Shown here piece by piece: positions 50,982-58,956 of a DNA stretch of 64,000 bases. Each line of letters starts with the position of its first letter. Position 1 is the first letter of the stretch. The stretch spans positions 32,001 through 96,000 of the forward strand of contig OY760142.1 in NCBI GenBank assembly GCA_963663225.1, read 5' to 3'. The stretch is from Nitrospirota bacterium. GTDB lineage: Bacteria; Nitrospirota; UBA9217. The position numbers and the translations under genes are program-made. The notes beneath the pieces are model-generated. The model worked only from the letters and a program-made list of their open reading frames with translations. It had not been told where the DNA came from and ran no database searches.

Positions 50982-51533
50982 ATGTTCCTGCGTTCTTTCA
51001 GCAAAAACAAATACTCAATGGTAGTTATTTTTTTCAGCTTTTTTTTGATACTGCCGTATGTCGGCAATGAGCAGTCACTTGCAAACCCTTCGCTCCAGGA
51101 GGCACGGGTAACGAATGTCAATGACGGAGATACCGTAACGCTCTCAATAAACGGACGGATTCACCGCACGCGCCTTATCGGAATTGACGCCCCTGAGATG
51201 GGTCAGAAGCCCTGGGGCGAAAGGTCGAAAGAACACCTTATCGGCATTATGAAGCAAAACGGCTGGATGGTTTACGTCGAAACCGATATCGTAAAAACCG
51301 ACAAGTATAACCGGCTCCTCGCCTATCTCTGGACAAAGGAAAACGAACTTATCAACGAGCGCATGCTGCGGGATGGTTATGCGGTACTGTTCACCATACA
51401 ACCGAACAGCAAACATGTGCAGCGTTTTAAAAAAGTACAGCGCATTGCCCGCCAGGAAAAAAAAGGCATCTGGGGACCCGACGGCCTCAGGGAAAAACCA
51501 TTGGATTATAAAAAACGACATCCACGAGAATAA
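50982..51533 (+). CDS. exported thermonuclease (SNase family)
   Basis: DGDT, RLIGIDAPE, DKYNRLLAY, GYA, GIW; N-terminal hydrophobic segment. Confidence 0.93.
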   Translation: MFLRSFSKNKYSMVVIFFSFFLILPYVGNEQSLANPSLQEARVTNVNDGDTVTLSINGRIHRTRLIGIDAPEMGQKPWGERSKEHLIGIMKQNGWMVYVETDIVKTDKYNRLLAYLWTKENELINERMLRDGYAVLFTIQPNSKHVQRFKKVQRIARQEKKGIWGPDGLREKPLDYKKRHPRE

Positions 51534-51615: not shown

Positions 51616-52338
51616 TTAACCCTTTTTCAAAATATTCCCTTTTATACCGATAATCGTTTCATCATACGGGATGCTTTTCCCTGAGTTTTTTACTGCTTCC
51701 TTCACGATATGAGTCAGTCCGGCACAGCACGGCACCTCCATCCTGACCACGGAAACACTCCGGACAGGGTTTTCAGAAAAAATCTGGGTTAGTTTATCCA
51801 AATAATAGCCCGCGTCATCGAGCTTCGGGCAGGCAATAATCAGCTTTTTATTCCTTAAAAATGAATTGTGAAAACCGGCTATTGAAAAAGCCGTGCAGTC
51901 CGCAGCAATCAGGATGTCCGTATTGTTAAAATACGGGGCATGAACGGGCACCAGCTTCAACTGCACCGGCCAATTGGTAAGCTCCGATCCCTGTGCATCC
52001 GCTGCCGGAGCGGAAGTAGTTGCGCGCTCTTTAAATTCAACAACCATGGAGCCGGGGCAACCGCACGGTTTGTCCGAAACCTCTGTTTTCTTTCGTTGCA
52101 GCGTCTGGACATGGCTTTTCGTCGCCTGTTCATCGAAGCCTGCTGCCTCGCGCTGGGTTATCGTTAATGCCCCTGTAGGACAGGTTCCGATGCACGCACC
52201 AAGGCCGTCACAGTAAATGTCCTTAACAAGTTTTGCTTTCCCATCGATAATCTGAAGCGCTGATTCTGCGCAGCTCGTTACACACTGTCCGCAACCGTTG
52301 CATTTGCTTTCATCAATCTCAATAATATTTCTTTTCAT
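51616..52338 (-). CDS. 4Fe-4S dicluster protein (FrdX-like, typically hcp-associated)
   Basis: CNGCGQC...C, CDGLGACIGTCP, GCPG, NWPVQL, AADC, CPKLD, MEVPCC. Confidence 0.85.
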   Translation of the reverse strand: MKRNIIEIDESKCNGCGQCVTSCAESALQIIDGKAKLVKDIYCDGLGACIGTCPTGALTITQREAAGFDEQATKSHVQTLQRKKTEVSDKPCGCPGSMVVEFKERATTSAPAADAQGSELTNWPVQLKLVPVHAPYFNNTDILIAADCTAFSIAGFHNSFLRNKKLIIACPKLDDAGYYLDKLTQIFSENPVRSVSVVRMEVPCCAGLTHIVKEAVKNSGKSIPYDETIIGIKGNILKKG

Positions 52339-52369
52339 GGCGGTTTCCTCCTCACCGTATCCTGATATT

Positions 52370-52411
52370 ATTATAGGTGCAACGCATAAACTTTTCCATG
52401 ATGTAGATCAT
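52370..52411 (-). promoter_or_regulatory. class II CRP/FNR-family activated promoter
   Basis: Palindrome ATGAT-GTAG-ATCAT (52398-52411) centred about -41.5 relative to TATAAT at 52375-52370. Confidence 0.7.
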
Positions 52412-52544
52412 ATCGATGCTTATGCTCAAAAAACATGCCGGCAGCTCTTTCTGCGCCACAAACAGTTGAACTTTTATCCTACCGTCCCACGTGTTTTTAT
52501 ATTATACTGAAACTAAACCACATGGCACAGGAGGAACCCCAAGA

Positions 52545-52814
52545 ATGAGCGAAGCTCTATTGAACATCGGATGGGCAATAATTTTCTCATTTATAGGAGG
52601 GATTGTCGGTATTATTCTGGTCCTGATTGCGACCACGTTGCTTCCCCGGCTCATCGATAAACTTACTCCAAAGATCGATGAAAACAAGGAAATTGCACGC
52701 GGCAATCAGGCGGTTGCTGAATATTTCGGCAGAATCACCTCGGCGGGAATCATCGGTATCAGCATCGTGATCGCAGCGGCGGTCCTCGGCGGGATCATCG
52801 CCGGCTTGCACTGA
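52545..52814 (+). CDS. DUF350 (YjfL-like) small membrane protein
   Basis: DKLTP.ID...EI..GN.AVA..IIGISIVIAAA motif; GGAGG RBS before ATG 52545. Confidence 0.8.
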   Translation: MSEALLNIGWAIIFSFIGGIVGIILVLIATTLLPRLIDKLTPKIDENKEIARGNQAVAEYFGRITSAGIIGISIVIAAAVLGGIIAGLH

Positions 52815-52894
52815 TAAGTCTCCGGGGTGCGTCTCGGCCGTACAATCTAAATGGGAAATTTTTTATTAAAAATCACGAGATTTTTGCTCACAAT

Positions 52895-55519
52895 ATGAAA
52901 AAAATCTTTATCTTCACGATATGCGCTATTTGTTTTCTAGCGTCAGGTTTCACACTTCATGCACGCGGTGGGGGTGGTTGCCTGATGCAGGGAACTCCCG
53001 TTCTCACACCATCGGGAAATGTTCCGGTGGAACAGTTGAAACCCGGCGACGTTGTGTTTGGAGTTAACAGAGGAACCCTGACCCGCGCTGTCGTCCGGTC
53101 TTTGAGCATGGTGCAGCCTGATCATTATATCCAAATTATCGTAAATGGGAAAATCGGCCTTGCGGTCACCCAGGAACATCCTATAGAAGTGTCCCTTGGC
53201 GTGTTCAGAATGGCTTCCTTGCTGAAATCCGGCAATAAGGTCAATATCATCAGCCAAAACAGGTTTATGACAGGAACCATAACCTCCATTTCCACCATAC
53301 CGGCCCGCCTGCCTGCATATAACCTGCTGGTGTCACCCGCAGGAACGTTTGTTGCAAACGGAATTGTTGTACACAATAAAGGGTGTTTTCTTCCCGAGAC
53401 CCTCATCAGAATGGCGGACGGCACCAGGATGCCCATATCTCAAATTAAGCAAGATGACCGGGTGCTCGCATTCAAGACTGACGGTACGATCGTCGCATCA
53501 CGCGTCAATACTATACTGTCCCATGATGTGGATGAATACCGTGTGGTGACCGCCGGCAATATGCTTTTGCACGTGACCAGCGAACACCCGTTTTATGTCG
53601 GGGCGGGAACATTTAAAACCCTTGATTCACTGCATATCAACGATACAGTCGTTATTTTCGACGGTGTGGGTCTCAGCAGCCAGAAAATCACGGATATCCG
53701 TACAGTACACAAAAAAATCCGTGTTTATAATCTCCAGACAGACAGTCCTCATACGTTCTTTGCAAATGGCGTCGCAGTGCATAATAAGGGAGGCGGATGT
53801 TTTCCTGCGGGCACGATGATACTGACGCCGCGCGGTGCTATCAGGATAGAAAGTCTTTTATCCGGGGATATAGTAACGGCAATTGACAGAGCAGGAAATC
53901 CTGTCGCAGTACCCGTCAAAGCAGTATACGTGACGTCCTCACCCCTGCTGATCGTCAGGACACCGCATGGTGTTTTAAGAACAACTCCGGAACATCCTCT
54001 CGCACTCGCATCAGGAGATTTCCGTCCGGCAGGGAATTTATTGCCCGGCAATGAAGTATTGATCTGGCAGAATTCAGAACAACGACGTGCAAGGGTACAG
54101 GCTGTCCAGCAGATAAGTACCTATGAGTCTGTTTACAATCTGACTGTGGATTTACCCCACACCTTTGTGGCCGACGATTTTATCGTGCATAATAAAGGCG
54201 GCGGAGGCTACCGCGGCGGCAGCTATCACTCGTCCGGCAGGTCATCCGGCACTTCCTCTGATGAATCAGTGATTGTGTTTGTTATCGCATTTTTTGCCGT
54301 TAGCGCATCCATAATAATAATTGCCGCTTTGCTCGTTAAAAGTTCGCAAAAAGGAAACCTGGACCATCTTTACAGCATTTCTCAAATTCGGGGCAAAAGC
54401 GATAAGACATTGAAACTCCTTGCATTTCTCTCAAAACAGGATTCGTTGATGGCCCCGAATGCGCTGAAGAAGACTACCGAATCCGTCTTTCTAAAACTGC
54501 AGTCATGCTGGCAGTCACGTGAATACGTTCCCATGAAACCGCTTCTGATGCCGGACCTCTACCAGAACCATCTTGACCAGATACAGAGCATGCTGCGCAA
54601 CCATGAAATCAATATCATCGACCACCTAAAGATCGAACGAATTGATCTCGTCAATGTTCGATACACGCTGAAGCAGAATGACCGGGAATTTACCGCTCTC
54701 GTCTCGGCAACGGCACAGGATTATTATCTTGACGACAGAACACGGAGCAAGCTGCGGGGAGATGAGGCGCCTGCTCAATTTCAGGAGTTCTGGACATTCC
54801 AGTATCTGGATGGAACATGGCTGTTGCGCGAAATCGAACAATCGGCTGAATCGGATATATTAAAAGAAGATAATTTTGTAGAACAATTAACAGACAAGGC
54901 AATAGAACAGATTTACGGGCAAACAGTCCCACGGTCCGGATTGTCCGGCCCCTGGCTCGAAAGAAATGTGGAAGCGAAGGAAACGCGCGTAGAAAGAATG
55001 TTGAACTTTCTGGTACAAACGGACAAACTCTGGAACCGCAGTGCAATGCTGCTTACTGCAAGAAATGTTTTTATCAAACTGATTGCTGCCTGGGAATCCG
55101 GGGACACGGCGCGAATCCCTTCTGACGATCTTTTCGCCGATATGGCATCGGATATGGAAAAACAGATTGCGAGGAACCGGACTGCTGAAACCGCTCTCGA
55201 ATTCCGGAATTTGTGCATCCGGAAAACAGAGTTGCTTCTTATCAACAATTTCTCCGATAACAGCAAGGATGAATTTGTGGTACGCATTCGCGCACACGCC
55301 CAAAAAATTCTTAAACAGCATGGAGTATTGGTACACCAGGATGAAGAGGTGGCCCCTTTCGAACAGTATCTGACATTCGGCAGGTTGAATAATCAATGGA
55401 AATTAAAAGAGGTTGTGAATGAAGGAACAAAAGACTCGCTGATTCAGCAGGAAAATATTGACCAGGAGTCTTCTCCACAGCAGATACAGTGGTACTATCA
55501 GCATAAGCGCGCTCTGTAG
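52895..55519 (+). CDS. exported protein: signal peptide + 3 tandem Hint domains + Gly-rich linker + TM + 2 Tim44-like domains
   Basis: Signal peptide ending LHA; three C...TxEHP...YNL...F...VHN units; TM aa 459-481; two units with Q/A..W, F.E.W/L.F and W.L.E motifs of Tim44-like fold. Confidence 0.88.
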   Translation: MKKIFIFTICAICFLASGFTLHARGGGGCLMQGTPVLTPSGNVPVEQLKPGDVVFGVNRGTLTRAVVRSLSMVQPDHYIQIIVNGKIGLAVTQEHPIEVSLGVFRMASLLKSGNKVNIISQNRFMTGTITSISTIPARLPAYNLLVSPAGTFVANGIVVHNKGCFLPETLIRMADGTRMPISQIKQDDRVLAFKTDGTIVASRVNTILSHDVDEYRVVTAGNMLLHVTSEHPFYVGAGTFKTLDSLHINDTVVIFDGVGLSSQKITDIRTVHKKIRVYNLQTDSPHTFFANGVAVHNKGGGCFPAGTMILTPRGAIRIESLLSGDIVTAIDRAGNPVAVPVKAVYVTSSPLLIVRTPHGVLRTTPEHPLALASGDFRPAGNLLPGNEVLIWQNSEQRRARVQAVQQISTYESVYNLTVDLPHTFVADDFIVHNKGGGGYRGGSYHSSGRSSGTSSDESVIVFVIAFFAVSASIIIIAALLVKSSQKGNLDHLYSISQIRGKSDKTLKLLAFLSKQDSLMAPNALKKTTESVFLKLQSCWQSREYVPMKPLLMPDLYQNHLDQIQSMLRNHEINIIDHLKIERIDLVNVRYTLKQNDREFTALVSATAQDYYLDDRTRSKLRGDEAPAQFQEFWTFQYLDGTWLLREIEQSAESDILKEDNFVEQLTDKAIEQIYGQTVPRSGLSGPWLERNVEAKETRVERMLNFLVQTDKLWNRSAMLLTARNVFIKLIAAWESGDTARIPSDDLFADMASDMEKQIARNRTAETALEFRNLCIRKTELLLINNFSDNSKDEFVVRIRAHAQKILKQHGVLVHQDEEVAPFEQYLTFGRLNNQWKLKEVVNEGTKDSLIQQENIDQESSPQQIQWYYQHKRAL
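52979..53377 (+). other. Hint / bacterial intein-like domain 1 (aa 29-161)
   Basis: G|CLMQGTPV, VTQEHP, AYNLLV..TFVANGIVVHN|K. Confidence 0.9.
53384..53785 (+). other. Hint / bacterial intein-like domain 2 (aa 164-297)
   Basis: G|CFLPETLI, VTSEHP, VYNLQT..HTFFANGVAVHN|K. Confidence 0.92.
53798..54193 (+). other. Hint / bacterial intein-like domain 3 (aa 302-433)
   Basis: G|CFPAGTMI, TTPEHP, VYNLTV..HTFVADDFIVHN|K. Confidence 0.92.
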
Positions 55520-55578
55520 GAGCTGGATGGCCGGCAATCGCACAAGATCGGCGCAGAAGGAGAAAAGGGGAGAAAAGG

Positions 55579-55941
55579 ATGGAAAATGTTGCCGTCGTGG
55601 GTGCAAGCCCAAAAAGTGACCGCTATTCTTATCAAGCCATGATATTACTTGAAGAGTCCGGGCACAATCCGATTCCCATTGCTCCGGTGAAACAGGAAAT
55701 ACTCGGGAAAAAAGTCTACCCGACGTTACAAGACGTACCGGATCGTATCGACACTATTACAGTGTATATCAGGCCTTCGCTGCAGGCCGCAGTACTCGAT
55801 GATGTTGTCCGTCTTAAACCTAGCCGCATCATTTTTAACCCGGGGACAGAGAATCCCAGAGAATACGACCGGCTCCGGAAAGCAGGCATTGAAGTGCTCG
55901 AAGCATGCACCTTGATTCTGCTGAGAACAAACCGGTTCTGA
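55579..55941 (+). CDS. CoA-binding domain protein (YccU-like)
   Basis: VAVVGASPK.DRYS, IDTIT.Y, IFNPGTEN, ACTL. Confidence 0.88.
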   Translation: MENVAVVGASPKSDRYSYQAMILLEESGHNPIPIAPVKQEILGKKVYPTLQDVPDRIDTITVYIRPSLQAAVLDDVVRLKPSRIIFNPGTENPREYDRLRKAGIEVLEACTLILLRTNRF

Positions 55942-55986: not shown

Positions 55987-57417
55987 CTATCCTTTCACGC
56001 AGGCGATGGGTTTGACCCGCGCGACCCTTCTGGCAAGATTTGCGTTATGAGCGGCCTCAACTACTTCACCTACATCCTTGTATGACTCCGGCGCTTCTTC
56101 GGCAATGCCGGAGTATGAATGACCACGAATAAGTATCCCCCGCTCTTCCAGCGACGCAACAATCTCCTTCCCATGCCATCTTTTTTTTGCCTGCGTCCGG
56201 GACATTGCCCTTCCGGCGCCATGGCATGCGGAACCGAACGCGGTCTCCATTCCTTCATCGGTTCCGACAAGAATATACGACGATGTTCCCATGGTTCCGC
56301 CGATCAGAACCGGCTGCCCGACATGGCGGTATTCCTGCGGCAGATCAACTCGACAGGCCCCGAACGCCCGGGTTGCGCCCTTGCGGTGAACGTACAGTCT
56401 CTTCTTCTTTCCCCTGATCATATGCGTTTCAATCTTGCACGTATTGTGGCTGACGTCGTACAGCATCGTGATTCTGCTCTCGGGATAAACTTCAGAAAAT
56501 ATTTCCCGAACCAGATGGGCAATGATCTGACGGTTCGCCAATGCGCAGTTGATTCCGGCGCTCATTGCGCCAAAATATTTTTTCCCTTCAGGCGATATGA
56601 TCGGGGCGCAGGCCAACTCCCGGTCCTGTACAGTAATATTGTATTTGCGCAGAGTGACGGCAAGGTTTTTCAAATAGTCGGTGCCGATCTGGTGCCCGAG
56701 ACCGCGTGATCCGCTGTGGATGGAAATGAGAACGTCGTTTTTTTGAAGGCCCATGGCCTGCGCTGTTTCCTCCTGATAAATATCAGCCACCACCTGCACT
56801 TCGAGATAATGGTTTCCACTGCCCAGTGTCCCCATCTCGCGATGTTGCCGTTTTTTTGCCGTATCCGAAACAGCGTCCGGTTCCGCTCCTTCGACTCTGC
56901 CATGGTCTTCAATATATGCAAGATCTTCCGGGACTCCATAGCCTTTCCGTACTGCCCATGCAGCTCCTGCGGCAAGCATTTCGTCAATGTGCGCCGAAGA
57001 GAGTCTGATCAGCCCCTCAGACCCTACTCCCGCCGGCACTCGGGCATAAAGTTGGTCAATAAGCGATTGGAGTCTGGGCAGGACTTCCTCCCGCGTCAGA
57101 CCGGTCTTCATCGTCCGGACGCCGCAGGAAATATCGAAACCCACGCCACCCATGGAGATGATCCCGCCTTCATCCGGATCAAATGCGGCAACACCTCCGA
57201 TGGGGAAACCATATCCCCAATGCGCATCAGGCATTGCAATGGAAGCGAGCTGAATGCCGGGCAGCATGGCGACGTTTATCACCTGTTCGCGCACTTTCTC
57301 ATCCATCTCCCTGATTAATTTTTCGCTTGCGAAGATCCTGCCGGGGACCCGCATGGCGCCCTGCTGCGGTATCTCCCAGGTATAATCAGTAAGTTGAAGG
57401 AAGGATTTCGGATCCAT
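55987..57417 (-). CDS. rtcB: RNA ligase RtcB (archaeal-type)
   Basis: MPDAH.GYGFPIG, GFDISCG, GTLGSGNHY, HSGSRG, HRKGAT, HGAGR, EEAP..YK; likely ATG 57417. Confidence 0.96.
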   Translation of the reverse strand: MDPKSFLQLTDYTWEIPQQGAMRVPGRIFASEKLIREMDEKVREQVINVAMLPGIQLASIAMPDAHWGYGFPIGGVAAFDPDEGGIISMGGVGFDISCGVRTMKTGLTREEVLPRLQSLIDQLYARVPAGVGSEGLIRLSSAHIDEMLAAGAAWAVRKGYGVPEDLAYIEDHGRVEGAEPDAVSDTAKKRQHREMGTLGSGNHYLEVQVVADIYQEETAQAMGLQKNDVLISIHSGSRGLGHQIGTDYLKNLAVTLRKYNITVQDRELACAPIISPEGKKYFGAMSAGINCALANRQIIAHLVREIFSEVYPESRITMLYDVSHNTCKIETHMIRGKKKRLYVHRKGATRAFGACRVDLPQEYRHVGQPVLIGGTMGTSSYILVGTDEGMETAFGSACHGAGRAMSRTQAKKRWHGKEIVASLEERGILIRGHSYSGIAEEAPESYKDVGEVVEAAHNANLARRVARVKPIACVKG

Positions 57418-57481
57418 AAAAACTCCGGGACTCAAATACGCCAATTGCGGTTCGAGGAGGATGTATCTGGATTGCTTTTTA

Positions 57482-57898
57482 TCATACATCGACTACGCAT
57501 TGCGCAGTATATATTCCGTTTTTCTCAACCACACTCAATTGATGGTATGTGGCGCCTTTTACTTCCACCTTTGGTTCGTGGCGCTCCGTATCGAGACGTT
57601 CTCCCCACGCCGTTCCCGTCAGCGCCATATTCCGAATCGTTACTTTAAACGCAGAAAACACTATGTGTTCGAGGTCTGATACCGACAGCAGTGCGTTAAG
57701 CCATTCGACGAGAAGAAGCTCCGTGTCAGGCGCCGCAACAGTGACGGTCAAGGTCTCTTTCGGCTGCACCGCTTCGGTTTTTACCATGATGGAATACAGG
57801 GCCGCCGCGGCATTTTCAAAAGCCTCCTCCATGCTGCTGCCGGATCCCCGGATACCGATATCTGATTCGTGCTCAAACGTCTCGTATAACGCTCCCAA
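57482..57898 (-). CDS. archease
   Basis: EH.SDIG, EAFENAA, VKGATYH, C-terminal VDV; adjacent to rtcB. Confidence 0.93.
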   Translation of the reverse strand: MGALYETFEHESDIGIRGSGSSMEEAFENAAAALYSIMVKTEAVQPKETLTVTVAAPDTELLLVEWLNALLSVSDLEHIVFSAFKVTIRNMALTGTAWGERLDTERHEPKVEVKGATYHQLSVVEKNGIYTAQCVVDV

Positions 57899-57948
57899 TA
57901 ACTGCTCCTTATAAATTGTAATTCAAATTCTCTGCCGGAAACTACTGA

Positions 57949-58956
57949 TCACCAAAGCCCCGCTATATTTGCACCACAATAGCCACAGGTTCCTGCCTTT
58001 ACCATATTTTGAAGAACACGAAAACCTATCCGCTGAACCAGCGTTCGTTTACAATTCCAGCAGATTGTATCTTCTCCCTCGCCGGGAATATTTCCTTCAT
58101 ACACGTACCGGAGACCCGTTTCAAAACCAATCTGCCTGGCGCGGGCAAGTGTCTCCAGCGGCGTTTTCGGCTGGTCAAACAGTCTGTACATCGGATGAAA
58201 GCGTGATACATGCCACGGAATATTTTCACTTACCGATTTTATGAAACCGGCAATTTTTCTGAGTTCTTCGTCTGAATCATTATATCCGGGGATAATCAGA
58301 GTAGTAATTTCAACCCAGATGCCGATTTCCTTGTAAAGCCGTATCGAATCAAGCACCGGAGCAAGCCGCGCGCCGCATATCTTCGTATAAAAATCATCAC
58401 TGAAAGCCTTAAGATCGATATTTGCAGCATGGAGATACGGCTGTATCGTCTTCAGCGCTTCAGAAGTAATATATCCGTTTGTTACAAACACATTTTTCAG
58501 GCCGGATTCGCTTGCCAAACGGGCCGTGTCATAGGCCAATTCAAAATATATCGTCGGTTCGGTATAGGTATAGGAAATGCTGTCGCAACCGCGGTCACGG
58601 GCCTCCTTGACGATGGCACTTGGCGTTGCAGATTCACCTGCCAGGAGTCCGCTGTGATCCTGCGGAAGTTGAGAAATATCGGAATTTTGACAGTGCTTGC
58701 AACGGAAATTGCACCCGGGTGTTGCAATGGAGTAGGACAGGCTGCCTGGTCGAACATGAAAGAGGGGTTTTTTTTCAATGGGATCAACGTGACGGGCGAT
58801 CACCTTGTCATAGACCAGGCTGTACAGGACGCCATCGCGGTTTTCGCGAACAGCGCAAACGCCGCGTTTTCCGGGTGAAATAAGACAATGATGGTTGCAG
58901 AGGCCGCATTGTACTCTCTTGTTCTCTTTCGGCTGCTGGAACATTGCCTGTTTCAT
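57949..58956 (-). CDS. amrS: AmmeMemoRadiSam system radical SAM enzyme
   Basis: C..C...C N-terminal cluster, DPIEKKPLFH, GCNFRCKHCQN, YTYTEP, Y.GN. Confidence 0.9.
   Translation of the reverse strand: MKQAMFQQPKENKRVQCGLCNHHCLISPGKRGVCAVRENRDGVLYSLVYDKVIARHVDPIEKKPLFHVRPGSLSYSIATPGCNFRCKHCQNSDISQLPQDHSGLLAGESATPSAIVKEARDRGCDSISYTYTEPTIYFELAYDTARLASESGLKNVFVTNGYITSEALKTIQPYLHAANIDLKAFSDDFYTKICGARLAPVLDSIRLYKEIGIWVEITTLIIPGYNDSDEELRKIAGFIKSVSENIPWHVSRFHPMYRLFDQPKTPLETLARARQIGFETGLRYVYEGNIPGEGEDTICWNCKRTLVQRIGFRVLQNMVKAGTCGYCGANIAGLW

Follow-up and report, generated by a model that had tools for sequence, protein, structure and literature searches.

Tandem intein-like Hint domains in a family of predicted exported Tim44-like membrane proteins encoded beside a DUF350 gene

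What purpose could be served by three intein-like domains set one behind another in front of a membrane protein? The question is raised by a gene in the 64,000-nucleotide (nt) stretch of Nitrospirota bacterium DNA analysed here, hereafter the window (GenBank assembly GCA_963663225.1, contig OY760142.1, positions 32,001 to 96,000), whose product carries three tandem Hint domains, a transmembrane (TM) helix and two Tim44-like domains. Our findings suggest that the gene belongs to a large and as yet uncharacterised family of proteins of the inner membrane. We tentatively propose, as something a little short of probable, that each Hint acts as a single-turnover periplasmic autoprocessing module, the Hints being excised and the linkers between them joined. 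An earlier note on this DNA had drawn attention to the array; the invariant lysine that follows each Hint and the conserved DUF350 partner gene, both absent from that note, are described below. The parts of the gene are as follows, with positions counted in the window.

52895..55519, + strand: whole open reading frame (ORF), 874 amino acids (aa), comprising signal peptide, RGGGG, three Hints, Gly/Ser tail, TM helix and two Tim44-like domains (translation table 11, Pfam and NCBIfam)
52895..52963, + strand: predicted Sec signal peptide, aa 1-23, with putative cleavage after LHA (hydrophobicity and the family's -1/-3 residues)
52964..52978, + strand: R-G-G-G-G, aa 24-28, the N-flank of Hint 1
52979..53377, + strand: Hint 1, aa 29-161, 133 aa, type 1 'CLxxGT', with Cys1, TQEH, YNL and HN
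53378..53383, + strand: linker K-G, aa 162-163, holding the +1 Lys of Hint 1 and the -1 Gly of Hint 2
53384..53785, + strand: Hint 2, aa 164-297, 134 aa, type 2 'CFLPET', with Cys1, TSEH, YNL and HN
53786..53797, + strand: linker K-G-G-G, aa 298-301
53798..54193, + strand: Hint 3, aa 302-433, 132 aa, type 3 'CFPAGT', with Cys1, TPEH, YNL and HN
54194..54268, + strand: tail K-GGGG-YRGGSYHSSGRSSGTSSDES, aa 434-458, the invariant +1 Lys followed by a Gly/Ser-rich stretch
54269..54337, + strand: TM helix, about aa 459-481, followed by the basic residues KSSQKGN (hydropathy scan)
54392..54874, + strand: Tim44-like domain 1, about aa 500-660 (Pfam Tim44)
54965..55516, + strand: Tim44-like domain 2, about aa 691-874, best Pfam stretch aa 715-840 (Pfam Tim44)

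The Hint array and its junctions

The boundaries given in the earlier note for the three Hints and for their KG and KGGG spacers proved exact, and the catalytic residues it listed are in place: each unit opens with Cys1 (C29, C164, C302), has its own version of the block B TxEH motif and block F YNL, and closes on a His-Asn pair (aa 160-161, 296-297 and 432-433). In Pfam, PT-HINT matches three stretches of the protein (74.7 bits against a cut-off of 27.7, E 1.1e-20), and Hint_2 (2.1e-17), Hint (2.8e-16) and Intein_splicing (7.1e-15, three stretches) each pass their cut-offs as well, while NCBIfam contributes intein_Cterm three times and intein_Nterm twice. The Gly/Ser linker, single TM helix and paired Tim44-like domains that had been read from the sequence are confirmed by hydropathy and by two stretches of Pfam Tim44 (PF04280; 62.8 bits, cut-off 29.6). 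The two Tim44-like halves are homologous to each other (26% identity, E 2e-9), and no solved Tim44 structure was matched by sequence at E<=1 when the single sequence or the family profile was compared with the Protein Data Bank (PDB). Scans of the 874-aa protein returned no endonuclease or toxin family in Pfam or NCBIfam and no ubiquitin family in Pfam; together with the comparison of neighbouring genes, they agree with the statement of the earlier note that endonuclease, toxin tip and immunity gene are missing.

Hydropathy singles out the segments aa 1-23 and aa 455-485 (peak 3.04). At the proposed signal-peptidase site, position -1 is Ala in 133 of the 160 family members that have an R-Gly-Cys start, and position -3 is Ser, Ala, Leu or Val in 147 of the same 160, so that a signal peptide, export and cleavage at LHA/R (the slash marking the cut) are predicted for the Hint-Tim44 protein. 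Since basic residues come after the second hydrophobic segment, the positive-inside rule would place the Hints outside and the Tim44-like domains inside.

The architecture is not confined to this gene. A whole-protein search in which 8000 candidates were scored gave 882 matches at E<=1e-3, and both Hint and Tim44 Pfam domains are present in all 120 of the matches listed from these 882. Counting Hints in the 120 listed proteins with a hidden Markov model built from the three units of the window gave two in 3 proteins, three in 34, four in 79, five in 2 and six in 2.

These 120 proteins contain 446 Hint units, over which the junctions were counted. Cys1 is present in 442 (some of the four exceptions are N-terminally truncated records), the terminal His-Asn in 445, and the +1 residue is Lys in 445; block B reads TxEH or TxDH in 433. 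Cys1 is the sole Cys of 343 units, and block F reads YN or FN in 293 of the 308 units with a detected motif. All 325 non-empty linkers between Hints consist of Lys plus one to five Gly (KGGG 140, KG 132, KGGGGG 26, KGG 25, KGGGG 2), and in 117 of the 120 proteins the first Hint comes directly after [AGSP]RGGGG. In an alignment of 45 three-Hint sequences, the invariant columns of the predicted exported segment are essentially the Thr and His of block B, the H-N-K-G-C junctions, K162 and G163 among them, and a few block F and G positions. The junction residues are thus the most conserved part of this segment.

The composition of the tail helps to place the lysine. From +2 to the TM helix, the 120 relatives have 41% Ser, 39% Gly, 6.6% Arg and 0.4% Lys; a further Lys occurs in the tail of only 10 of them, and two Hint-less tails counted for Lys hold 1 and 0. 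Because Lys is so scarce in these tails relative to Arg, the +1 Lys would seem to belong to the Hint unit and not to the tail, like the +1 nucleophile in an intein reaction. When the protein is compared with its two closest relatives, the ratio of nonsynonymous to synonymous substitution rates (dN/dS) comes to 0.08-0.21 for the Hints, as against 0.13-0.18 for the Tim44 part. The Hints are under purifying selection and no less constrained than the remainder of the chain.

In a tree of 128 units taken from full-length representatives, three old unit types stand out that are conserved across phyla. Type 1 (C-x3-GT) is usually first and has RGGGG in front; type 2 (CFLPE/D) is usually second or the sole unit, with KG in front in 123 of 127 cases; type 3 (CFPAG) mostly closes the array and follows KGGG, KGG or KGGGGG. 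Superimposed on these types are recent, lineage-specific tandem duplications, for instance in P0125 (unit 1 pairs with 3, and 2 with 4), P0159 (units 2, 4 and 5), P0181 and P0193.

Could the array be an artefact? The earlier note had raised the possibility that the repeats arose in assembly, and this is ruled out by four observations: the three units of the window are only 28-32% identical in pairwise comparison; DNA repeats in the Hint region reach only 15-21 nt, at the codons of VHNKGGG and TxEHP; a contig of run X1, possibly the source sample, covers the stretch with 0 differences; and the same architecture recurs at 43 independently assembled genome loci, as it does among the 882 database matches. 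The wider explanation, that the array is an assembly or annotation artefact or a set of non-catalytic structural repeats, also meets the near-invariance of the catalytic residues, and we regard it as having almost no chance of being right.

Distribution of the family and its DUF350 partner gene

A search with the C-terminal 435 aa against 1.84 billion cluster representatives gave 1042 matches at E<=1e-3, 130 of them at E<=1e-30, and the representatives carry from 0 to 5 Hints. The 43 loci mentioned above come from a scan of species-representative genomes and span at least eight phyla. The nearest are in Nitrospiraceae and Nitrospiria (92% and 77% identity); by their record titles, others belong to Victivallales, Lentisphaerae, Sedimentisphaerales, Phycisphaeraceae, Planctomycetia, Gemmataceae, Thermoguttaceae, Verrucomicrobiota, Kiritimatiellaeota, Syntrophaceae, Smithella, Myxococcales and Thermoanaerobaculales. 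Within a phylum, the Hint-Tim44 gene has a sparse and scattered occurrence. Of 401 genomes sampled from the window's phylum, 10 have it, and of the 5 other genomes that belong to the window's genus, 2 do; for Planctomycetota (the phylum of locus L018) the count is 5 of 401, none of these being Hint-less by open-frame length. Neither plasmid records (72,556) nor phage records (50,697) yielded an orthologue, each set giving one unrelated single-Hint match only. Existing database names are automatic, either 'polymorphic toxin-type HINT domain-containing protein' or 'TIM44-like domain-containing protein'.

In the genome from which the window comes, the gene is present once and PT-HINT has no further match. 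That genome also encodes, outside the window, a weak paralogue with a single Tim44-like region (L045, G000:C1:2313546-2313986; a 341-aa frame with 24% identity to aa 504-649, E 4e-11). Among relatives with unusual structures, a 930-aa Thermoguttaceae protein (L030:4756-7548) has a different N-terminal region of about 500 aa, a Hint remnant of 24 residues, one Tim44 Pfam match and no upstream DUF350. In a genome of the same family as the window's (G087:C43:6534-7579; L068 and L070), the Tim44 part is split in two, with one in-frame TGA, and this may be a decaying copy or an assembly error; DUF350 had no match in that genome. Hint arrays with other C-termini were also sought and gave 397 matches at E<=1e-10. 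Most of the 28 non-Tim44 matches inspected seemed to be cut short or to contain frameshifts. A clearly different host was seen in just one of the 28, P0340, in which two Hints that belong to the subfamily, with flanks KGG-C and HN-K, precede a His/Gly/Tyr-rich C-terminus that carries the JGI name 'TIGR03000 family' and has no Tim44 by Pfam.

Directly upstream of the gene lies its partner:

52545..52814, + strand: DUF350 partner gene, 89 aa, two hydrophobic segments (Pfam, homologue alignment)

The true start of this gene is the ATG at 52545, which has AGGAGG upstream, and not the GTG at 52491 of the ORF list; homologues align from the Met of that ATG and are 54-96% identical, with a mean column identity of 70%. 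The Pfam match to DUF350 (PF03994) is just over its cut-off (27 bits against 26). The partner is more conserved than the large Hint-Tim44 protein. Hydropathy gives it two TM-like segments, and its invariant positions among 29 aligned partners form the loop TPxIDExKEIxRGNxAVA, which is predicted to be cytoplasmic. In 34 of 44 loci, DUF350 is the gene immediately upstream and has the same orientation; the gap measures 2-190 nt at 33 of them, the value obtained for L014 having no meaning. Of the ten remaining loci, seven have no upstream DNA on the contig and L043 is itself only a weak relative, so that true absence is limited to L041, where another gene abuts, and L030, with its different N-terminal region. 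In the sample of 401 genomes from the window's phylum, DUF350 occurs in 12, the Tim44 gene in 10 and both in 9; at 9 of the 12 DUF350 loci, the next gene begins with a signal peptide and ARGGGGC. DUF350 and Hint-Tim44 are therefore a conserved two-gene unit, and the gene order suggests that the two proteins may interact physically. DUF350 genes of the same subfamily (53-57% identity) also occur without a Hint/Tim44 gene at L055, L056 and L058 in genus g3 of that sample, the next gene at L056 and L058 being an unrelated ORF of about 207 aa. The single Hint-less locus reached (L047) has no DUF350 within 3.4 kb upstream.

An all-against-all ORF comparison of the 44 loci found no further conserved neighbour. 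In six deltaproteobacterial loci, the gene immediately before DUF350 belongs to the LemA family (PF04011, E 1.3e-56), which gives a lineage-specific LemA-DUF350-Hint/Tim44 trio (L008:5036-5593, and likewise L009, L010, L011, L024 and L039). In the window, the unit is followed by an RtcB-Archease-radical SAM cluster (55987-58956, - strand) and preceded by an SNase-family nuclease gene, identified by Pfam, with an apparent signal peptide (50982-51533, + strand); these are not part of the unit, because their conservation does not extend beyond the two closest relatives. The Tim44 part also contains long antisense ORFs (54690-55396, - strand), with equivalents in 41 loci, which are taken as shadow frames of the conserved gene and not as genes.

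A scan for promoters and terminators stayed at shuffled background (8 against 4.2 +/- 2.4, and 4 against 3.6 +/- 1.8) and placed no terminator between the DUF350 and Hint-Tim44 genes. Rfam had no match at E<=0.1 in 52250-55700, and no tRNA was found in 40000-64000. Within the genus, no clean empty site was found; the one pair-less genome with the flanking Fer4 gene, G179, has different neighbours. A role in a defence system was considered and rejected: PADLOC had no match for the Hint-Tim44 protein, and a 14-bit match of DUF350 to PycTM (E 0.007) was taken as chance similarity of TM segments.

Predicted processing and rival explanations

If the Hints react as their residues suggest, the sequence of events could be as follows. 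After Sec export, the signal peptide would be cleaved at LHA/R, and Cys1 of each Hint would attack the carbonyl of the preceding Gly (an N-S acyl shift), giving a Gly-thioester. The terminal Asn would then cyclise and cut the His-Asn/Lys bond, after which an amine of the invariant +1 Lys would resolve the thioester. This amine might be the Lys alpha-amine freed by the cut, as in the splicing of nucleophile-less bacterial intein-like (BIL) domains, or the Lys epsilon-amine, as in Tetrahymena BIL2. The Hints would leave, and the linkers would be joined into a periplasmic tail of the form R-G4-K-G-K-G3-K-G4..., like the Gly-rich tail of Hint-less relatives. That such processing has a selected function is suggested by the near-perfect retention of the catalytic set even though the flanks are mere linkers, by the invariant Lys, by linker lengths specific to each unit and by unit types conserved across phyla.

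Several observations weigh against this proposal of excision with joining, or against a function behind it. Cys1 would need to stay reduced in the periplasm. The +1 Lys rule was counted within this family alone. Many canonical inteins have Asp at the block F residue, which is Asn in this family. The joining step is less certain than plain cleavage, because BIL domains, according to passages of PMC7664689, yield mainly cleaved products for want of a +1 nucleophile. Repeated loss, flux in copy number and patchy distribution speak against a selected function. The loss can be seen in a C-terminal tree of 60 full-length representatives (Met start, C-terminal query covered and first units complete; other representatives were dropped as probable fragments), of which 13 have no Hint, 10 have one, 12 two, 17 three, 7 four and 1 five. 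The 13 Hint-less forms are scattered through the tree among Hint-bearing clades, and close relatives differ in number, as P0158 with two Hints and P0159 with five. Since the number ranges from 0 to 6 in relatives and Hint-less forms are scattered in this way, the array is dispensable for the Tim44 module. Changes in copy number fit a passenger element as well as they fit a function.

Hint-less proteins are of two kinds. The first has a signal peptide, A/RGG, a Gly/Ser/Tyr-rich stretch, a TM helix and two Tim44 domains, and looks like the product that splicing would leave; the second has an N-terminal TM helix only. P0123, the Hint-less representative nearest to the C-terminal part of the window's protein, has a Gly-rich N-terminus with apparently several TM segments in place of signal peptide and Hints, and Pfam finds only the two Tim44 domains in it.

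The view that the Hints are passengers, that is, intein-like elements without an endonuclease that were duplicated in tandem in a tolerant Gly-rich tail and do nothing for the host, draws on these same changes of number, on the Hint-less forms nested in the tree, on the recent tandem duplications of P0125 and P0159, and on the patchy occurrence of the gene pair in the two phylum samples. It answers a separate question, that of why the Hints are there, and holds that the catalytic residues are kept only since unexcised Hints are harmful. However, no homing endonuclease is present to drive their spread, the three position-specific unit types are conserved across phyla, and the Hints are as constrained as the host domains; a dead Hint should, moreover, be tolerated in a low-complexity exported tail, yet almost none has lost Cys1 or His-Asn. 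We judge a passenger origin without function to be somewhat unlikely, and the earlier claim that the element is not a selfish one can be kept in part: near-invariant junctions and constraint favour it, whereas the array's dispensability leaves room for a passenger. The related claim that three copies are maintained by selection holds for the retained catalytic residues and the purifying dN/dS but not for the number itself, which is not fixed at three; the search for homologues with 0 to 3 Hints that the earlier note had suggested, once run, returned 0 to 6.

Two other explanations accept that the Hints are active and differ in the outcome. In one, there would be cleavage only: thioester hydrolysis and Asn cyclisation at the N- and/or C-junctions, with no ligation, would shed the Hints and short R/K-Gly peptides into the periplasm and leave a membrane protein with a Lys-Gly/Ser tail, which could serve timed maturation or release of the tail. 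The mainly cleaved products of BIL domains point this way, as does the proneness of A-type BILs to C-terminal cleavage that part of PMC5874633 describes. The Pfam PT-HINT match also links the Hints to that domain class. PT-HINT domains are thought to release downstream parts. Cleavage alone nevertheless leaves the invariant +1 Lys (445/446) and the Gly-linker lengths specific to each unit type unexplained, and simple loss of the array, which does occur, would give the same end product; this outcome appears unlikely.

The other explanation is an intermolecular ligase, in which each Hint would be a single-use, ATP-independent donor of a Gly-thioester that is resolved by the amine of another molecule. 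The acceptor could be a neighbouring copy, through its +1 Lys, another envelope protein, through one of its Lys residues, or peptidoglycan or lipid, through an amine. Cross-links or branched conjugates of Gly and Lys would then arise in the ATP-free periplasm, their valency being given by the number of Hints. Gly/Lys-epsilon chemistry of this type is carried out by Tetrahymena BIL2 (PMC8616854), which at E 1e-14 is among the two nearest solved relatives; the -1 Gly and +1 Lys are invariant here and other Lys residues are depleted from the tail; the catalytic residues are kept although flanks that are mere linkers impose no need for splicing; and the copy number varies from 1 to 6. Yet the acyl group from Hint 1 would be only RGGGG, a cargo of doubtful use, no acceptor was found, and the DUF350 partner, with two TM segments and a conserved loop, exposes almost nothing to the periplasm. 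A ligase of this kind is, in our assessment, as improbable as cleavage alone. A still more doubtful extension would make the system a prokaryotic, periplasmic counterpart of ubiquitin-like conjugation by protein splicing, each Hint keeping the energy of one peptide bond in a Gly-thioester and spending it a single time, free of ATP, on a Gly-Lys(epsilon) isopeptide. Such a bond might arise inside the tail, which would then bear branched Gly/Lys structures, or it might link one copy to another or to a different envelope molecule; the valency would follow from the Hint number (1-6), and the DUF350/Tim44-like module would be the membrane platform that is modified or anchored.

Whichever outcome applies, the question of what bacterial intein-like domains do can be put here to hundreds of natural cases that share a single fixed context. 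Their copy number runs naturally from 0 to 6, and Gly at -1 and Lys at +1 mark the junctions sharply. Should the proposed activity be real, these are self-contained, ATP-independent modules for cutting or joining that work outside the cytoplasm. They would then be of interest for envelope biology and for protein engineering, for instance in splicing or ligation with a Lys acceptor or in the use of several orthogonal Hints per chain. The DUF350 pairing, in turn, gives a first handle on Tim44-like and DUF350/YjfL proteins, two widespread domains of unknown function in bacteria.

Comparison with known Hint, Tim44 and DUF350 systems

As the earlier note had supposed, a search of open-access PubMed Central and bioRxiv found no account of this architecture: it gave no description of Tim44 with Hint or BIL domains, of DUF350 with Tim44, or of tandem Hint or BIL arrays. 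The internal repeats treated in the relevant part of PMC3207474 are those of the hedgehog domain and not tandem Hint arrays. Among solved structures, the best PDB match of the family profile falls on Hint 3 and is to 2LWY, a bacterial intein-like domain (E 1.4e-23), followed by Tetrahymena BIL2 (6TMM/6Y75, 1e-14, on Hint 2), the RecA, DnaX, gp41-1 and DnaB mini-inteins (1e-11 to 1e-9) and, weakly, hedgehog (2e-7). The single sequence matches 6TMM at E 9e-9, on Hint 2, and 2LWY at 4e-8.

According to parts of the BIL literature, A-type BILs have intein-like motifs without a +1 nucleophile (PMC7664689, PMC5874633) and a conserved C-terminal His-Asn (PMC7765530). BIL domains sit in the variable regions of bacterial proteins that are not conserved and are often secreted (passages of PMC7664689, PMC7765530, PMC5874633 and PMC4287609), and their products are cleaved and, in some cases, spliced (passages of PMC7664689, PMC5874633 and PMC7765530). 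The N-terminal nucleophile of A-type BILs is Cys or Ser. The Hints of the window agree with the A-type in having Cys1, a block B TxxH, His-Asn and no Cys, Ser or Thr at +1, and they resemble the BIL domain 2LWY in their length of about 135 aa without an endonuclease and in their place in a predicted exported, variable part of a bacterial protein. The best reading, on the strength of these motifs, is that they are BIL-type autoprocessing modules with predicted activity. They differ from BILs, as far as these are described in the passages cited, in standing up to six in tandem, in their Lys-Gly(1-5) spacers and invariant -1 Gly and +1 Lys, and in their Tim44-like membrane host with its DUF350 partner gene.

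In Tetrahymena BIL2, a Lys epsilon-amine forms an isopeptide bond with the C-terminal residue (Gly) of the upstream ubiquitin-like domain without ATP (PMC8616854 section 2.4), which provides a direct precedent for a Hint coupling a Gly-thioester to a Lys amine. As in BIL2 of the Tetrahymena BUBL locus, Gly precedes the Hint in the present family. Dassa is said to have described in 2004 several Hints within one BUBL polyprotein. BUBL Hints, however, are eukaryotic, cytoplasmic and flanked by ubiquitin-like cargo or acceptor domains, whereas those described here have flanks that are linkers of 2-6 residues, Lys at +1 and a predicted location in the bacterial periplasm. Class-1 mini-inteins share Cys1, TxxH and the terminal His-Asn; unlike class-1 inteins, the family has Lys and no Cys, Ser or Thr at +1 (445/446), forms tandem arrays, is set between R/K-Gly flanks in a low-complexity tail and not at a conserved site, and has Hint-less relatives.

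The PT-HINT domain of polymorphic toxins (PF07591) is the strongest Pfam match, and several relatives are so named at NCBI. A reading as polymorphic toxin fails because the Hints are followed by a TM helix and Tim44-like domains, with no toxin domain and no immunity gene. The Hedgehog Hog domain differs in having a sterol-recognition region and no C-terminal Asn cleavage, while each Hint of the family ends in HN followed by Lys-Gly.

On the membrane side, the protein is like bacterial Tim44-like proteins in that its two Tim44-like domains exceed the Pfam cut-off. It is unlike TimA: the score for the Tim44/TimA adaptor subfamily model NF033779 of NCBIfam (33.1 bits) is under the cut-off of 80, and the Tim44-like domain is duplicated and fused to a predicted exported Hint array. 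For the partner, passages of PMC11237479 report that YjfL-family (DUF350) proteins recur in envelope operons linked to PspA and polyamines; the YjfL forms described there have four or eight TM segments, whereas the partner is a single two-TM copy, and those passages make no mention of a Hint-Tim44 pairing with DUF350. Set beside all of these systems, the Hints are of a known, BIL type. What is new to description is their arrangement in tandem, the rule of Gly at -1 and Lys at +1, their Tim44-like host and the pairing of that host with DUF350.

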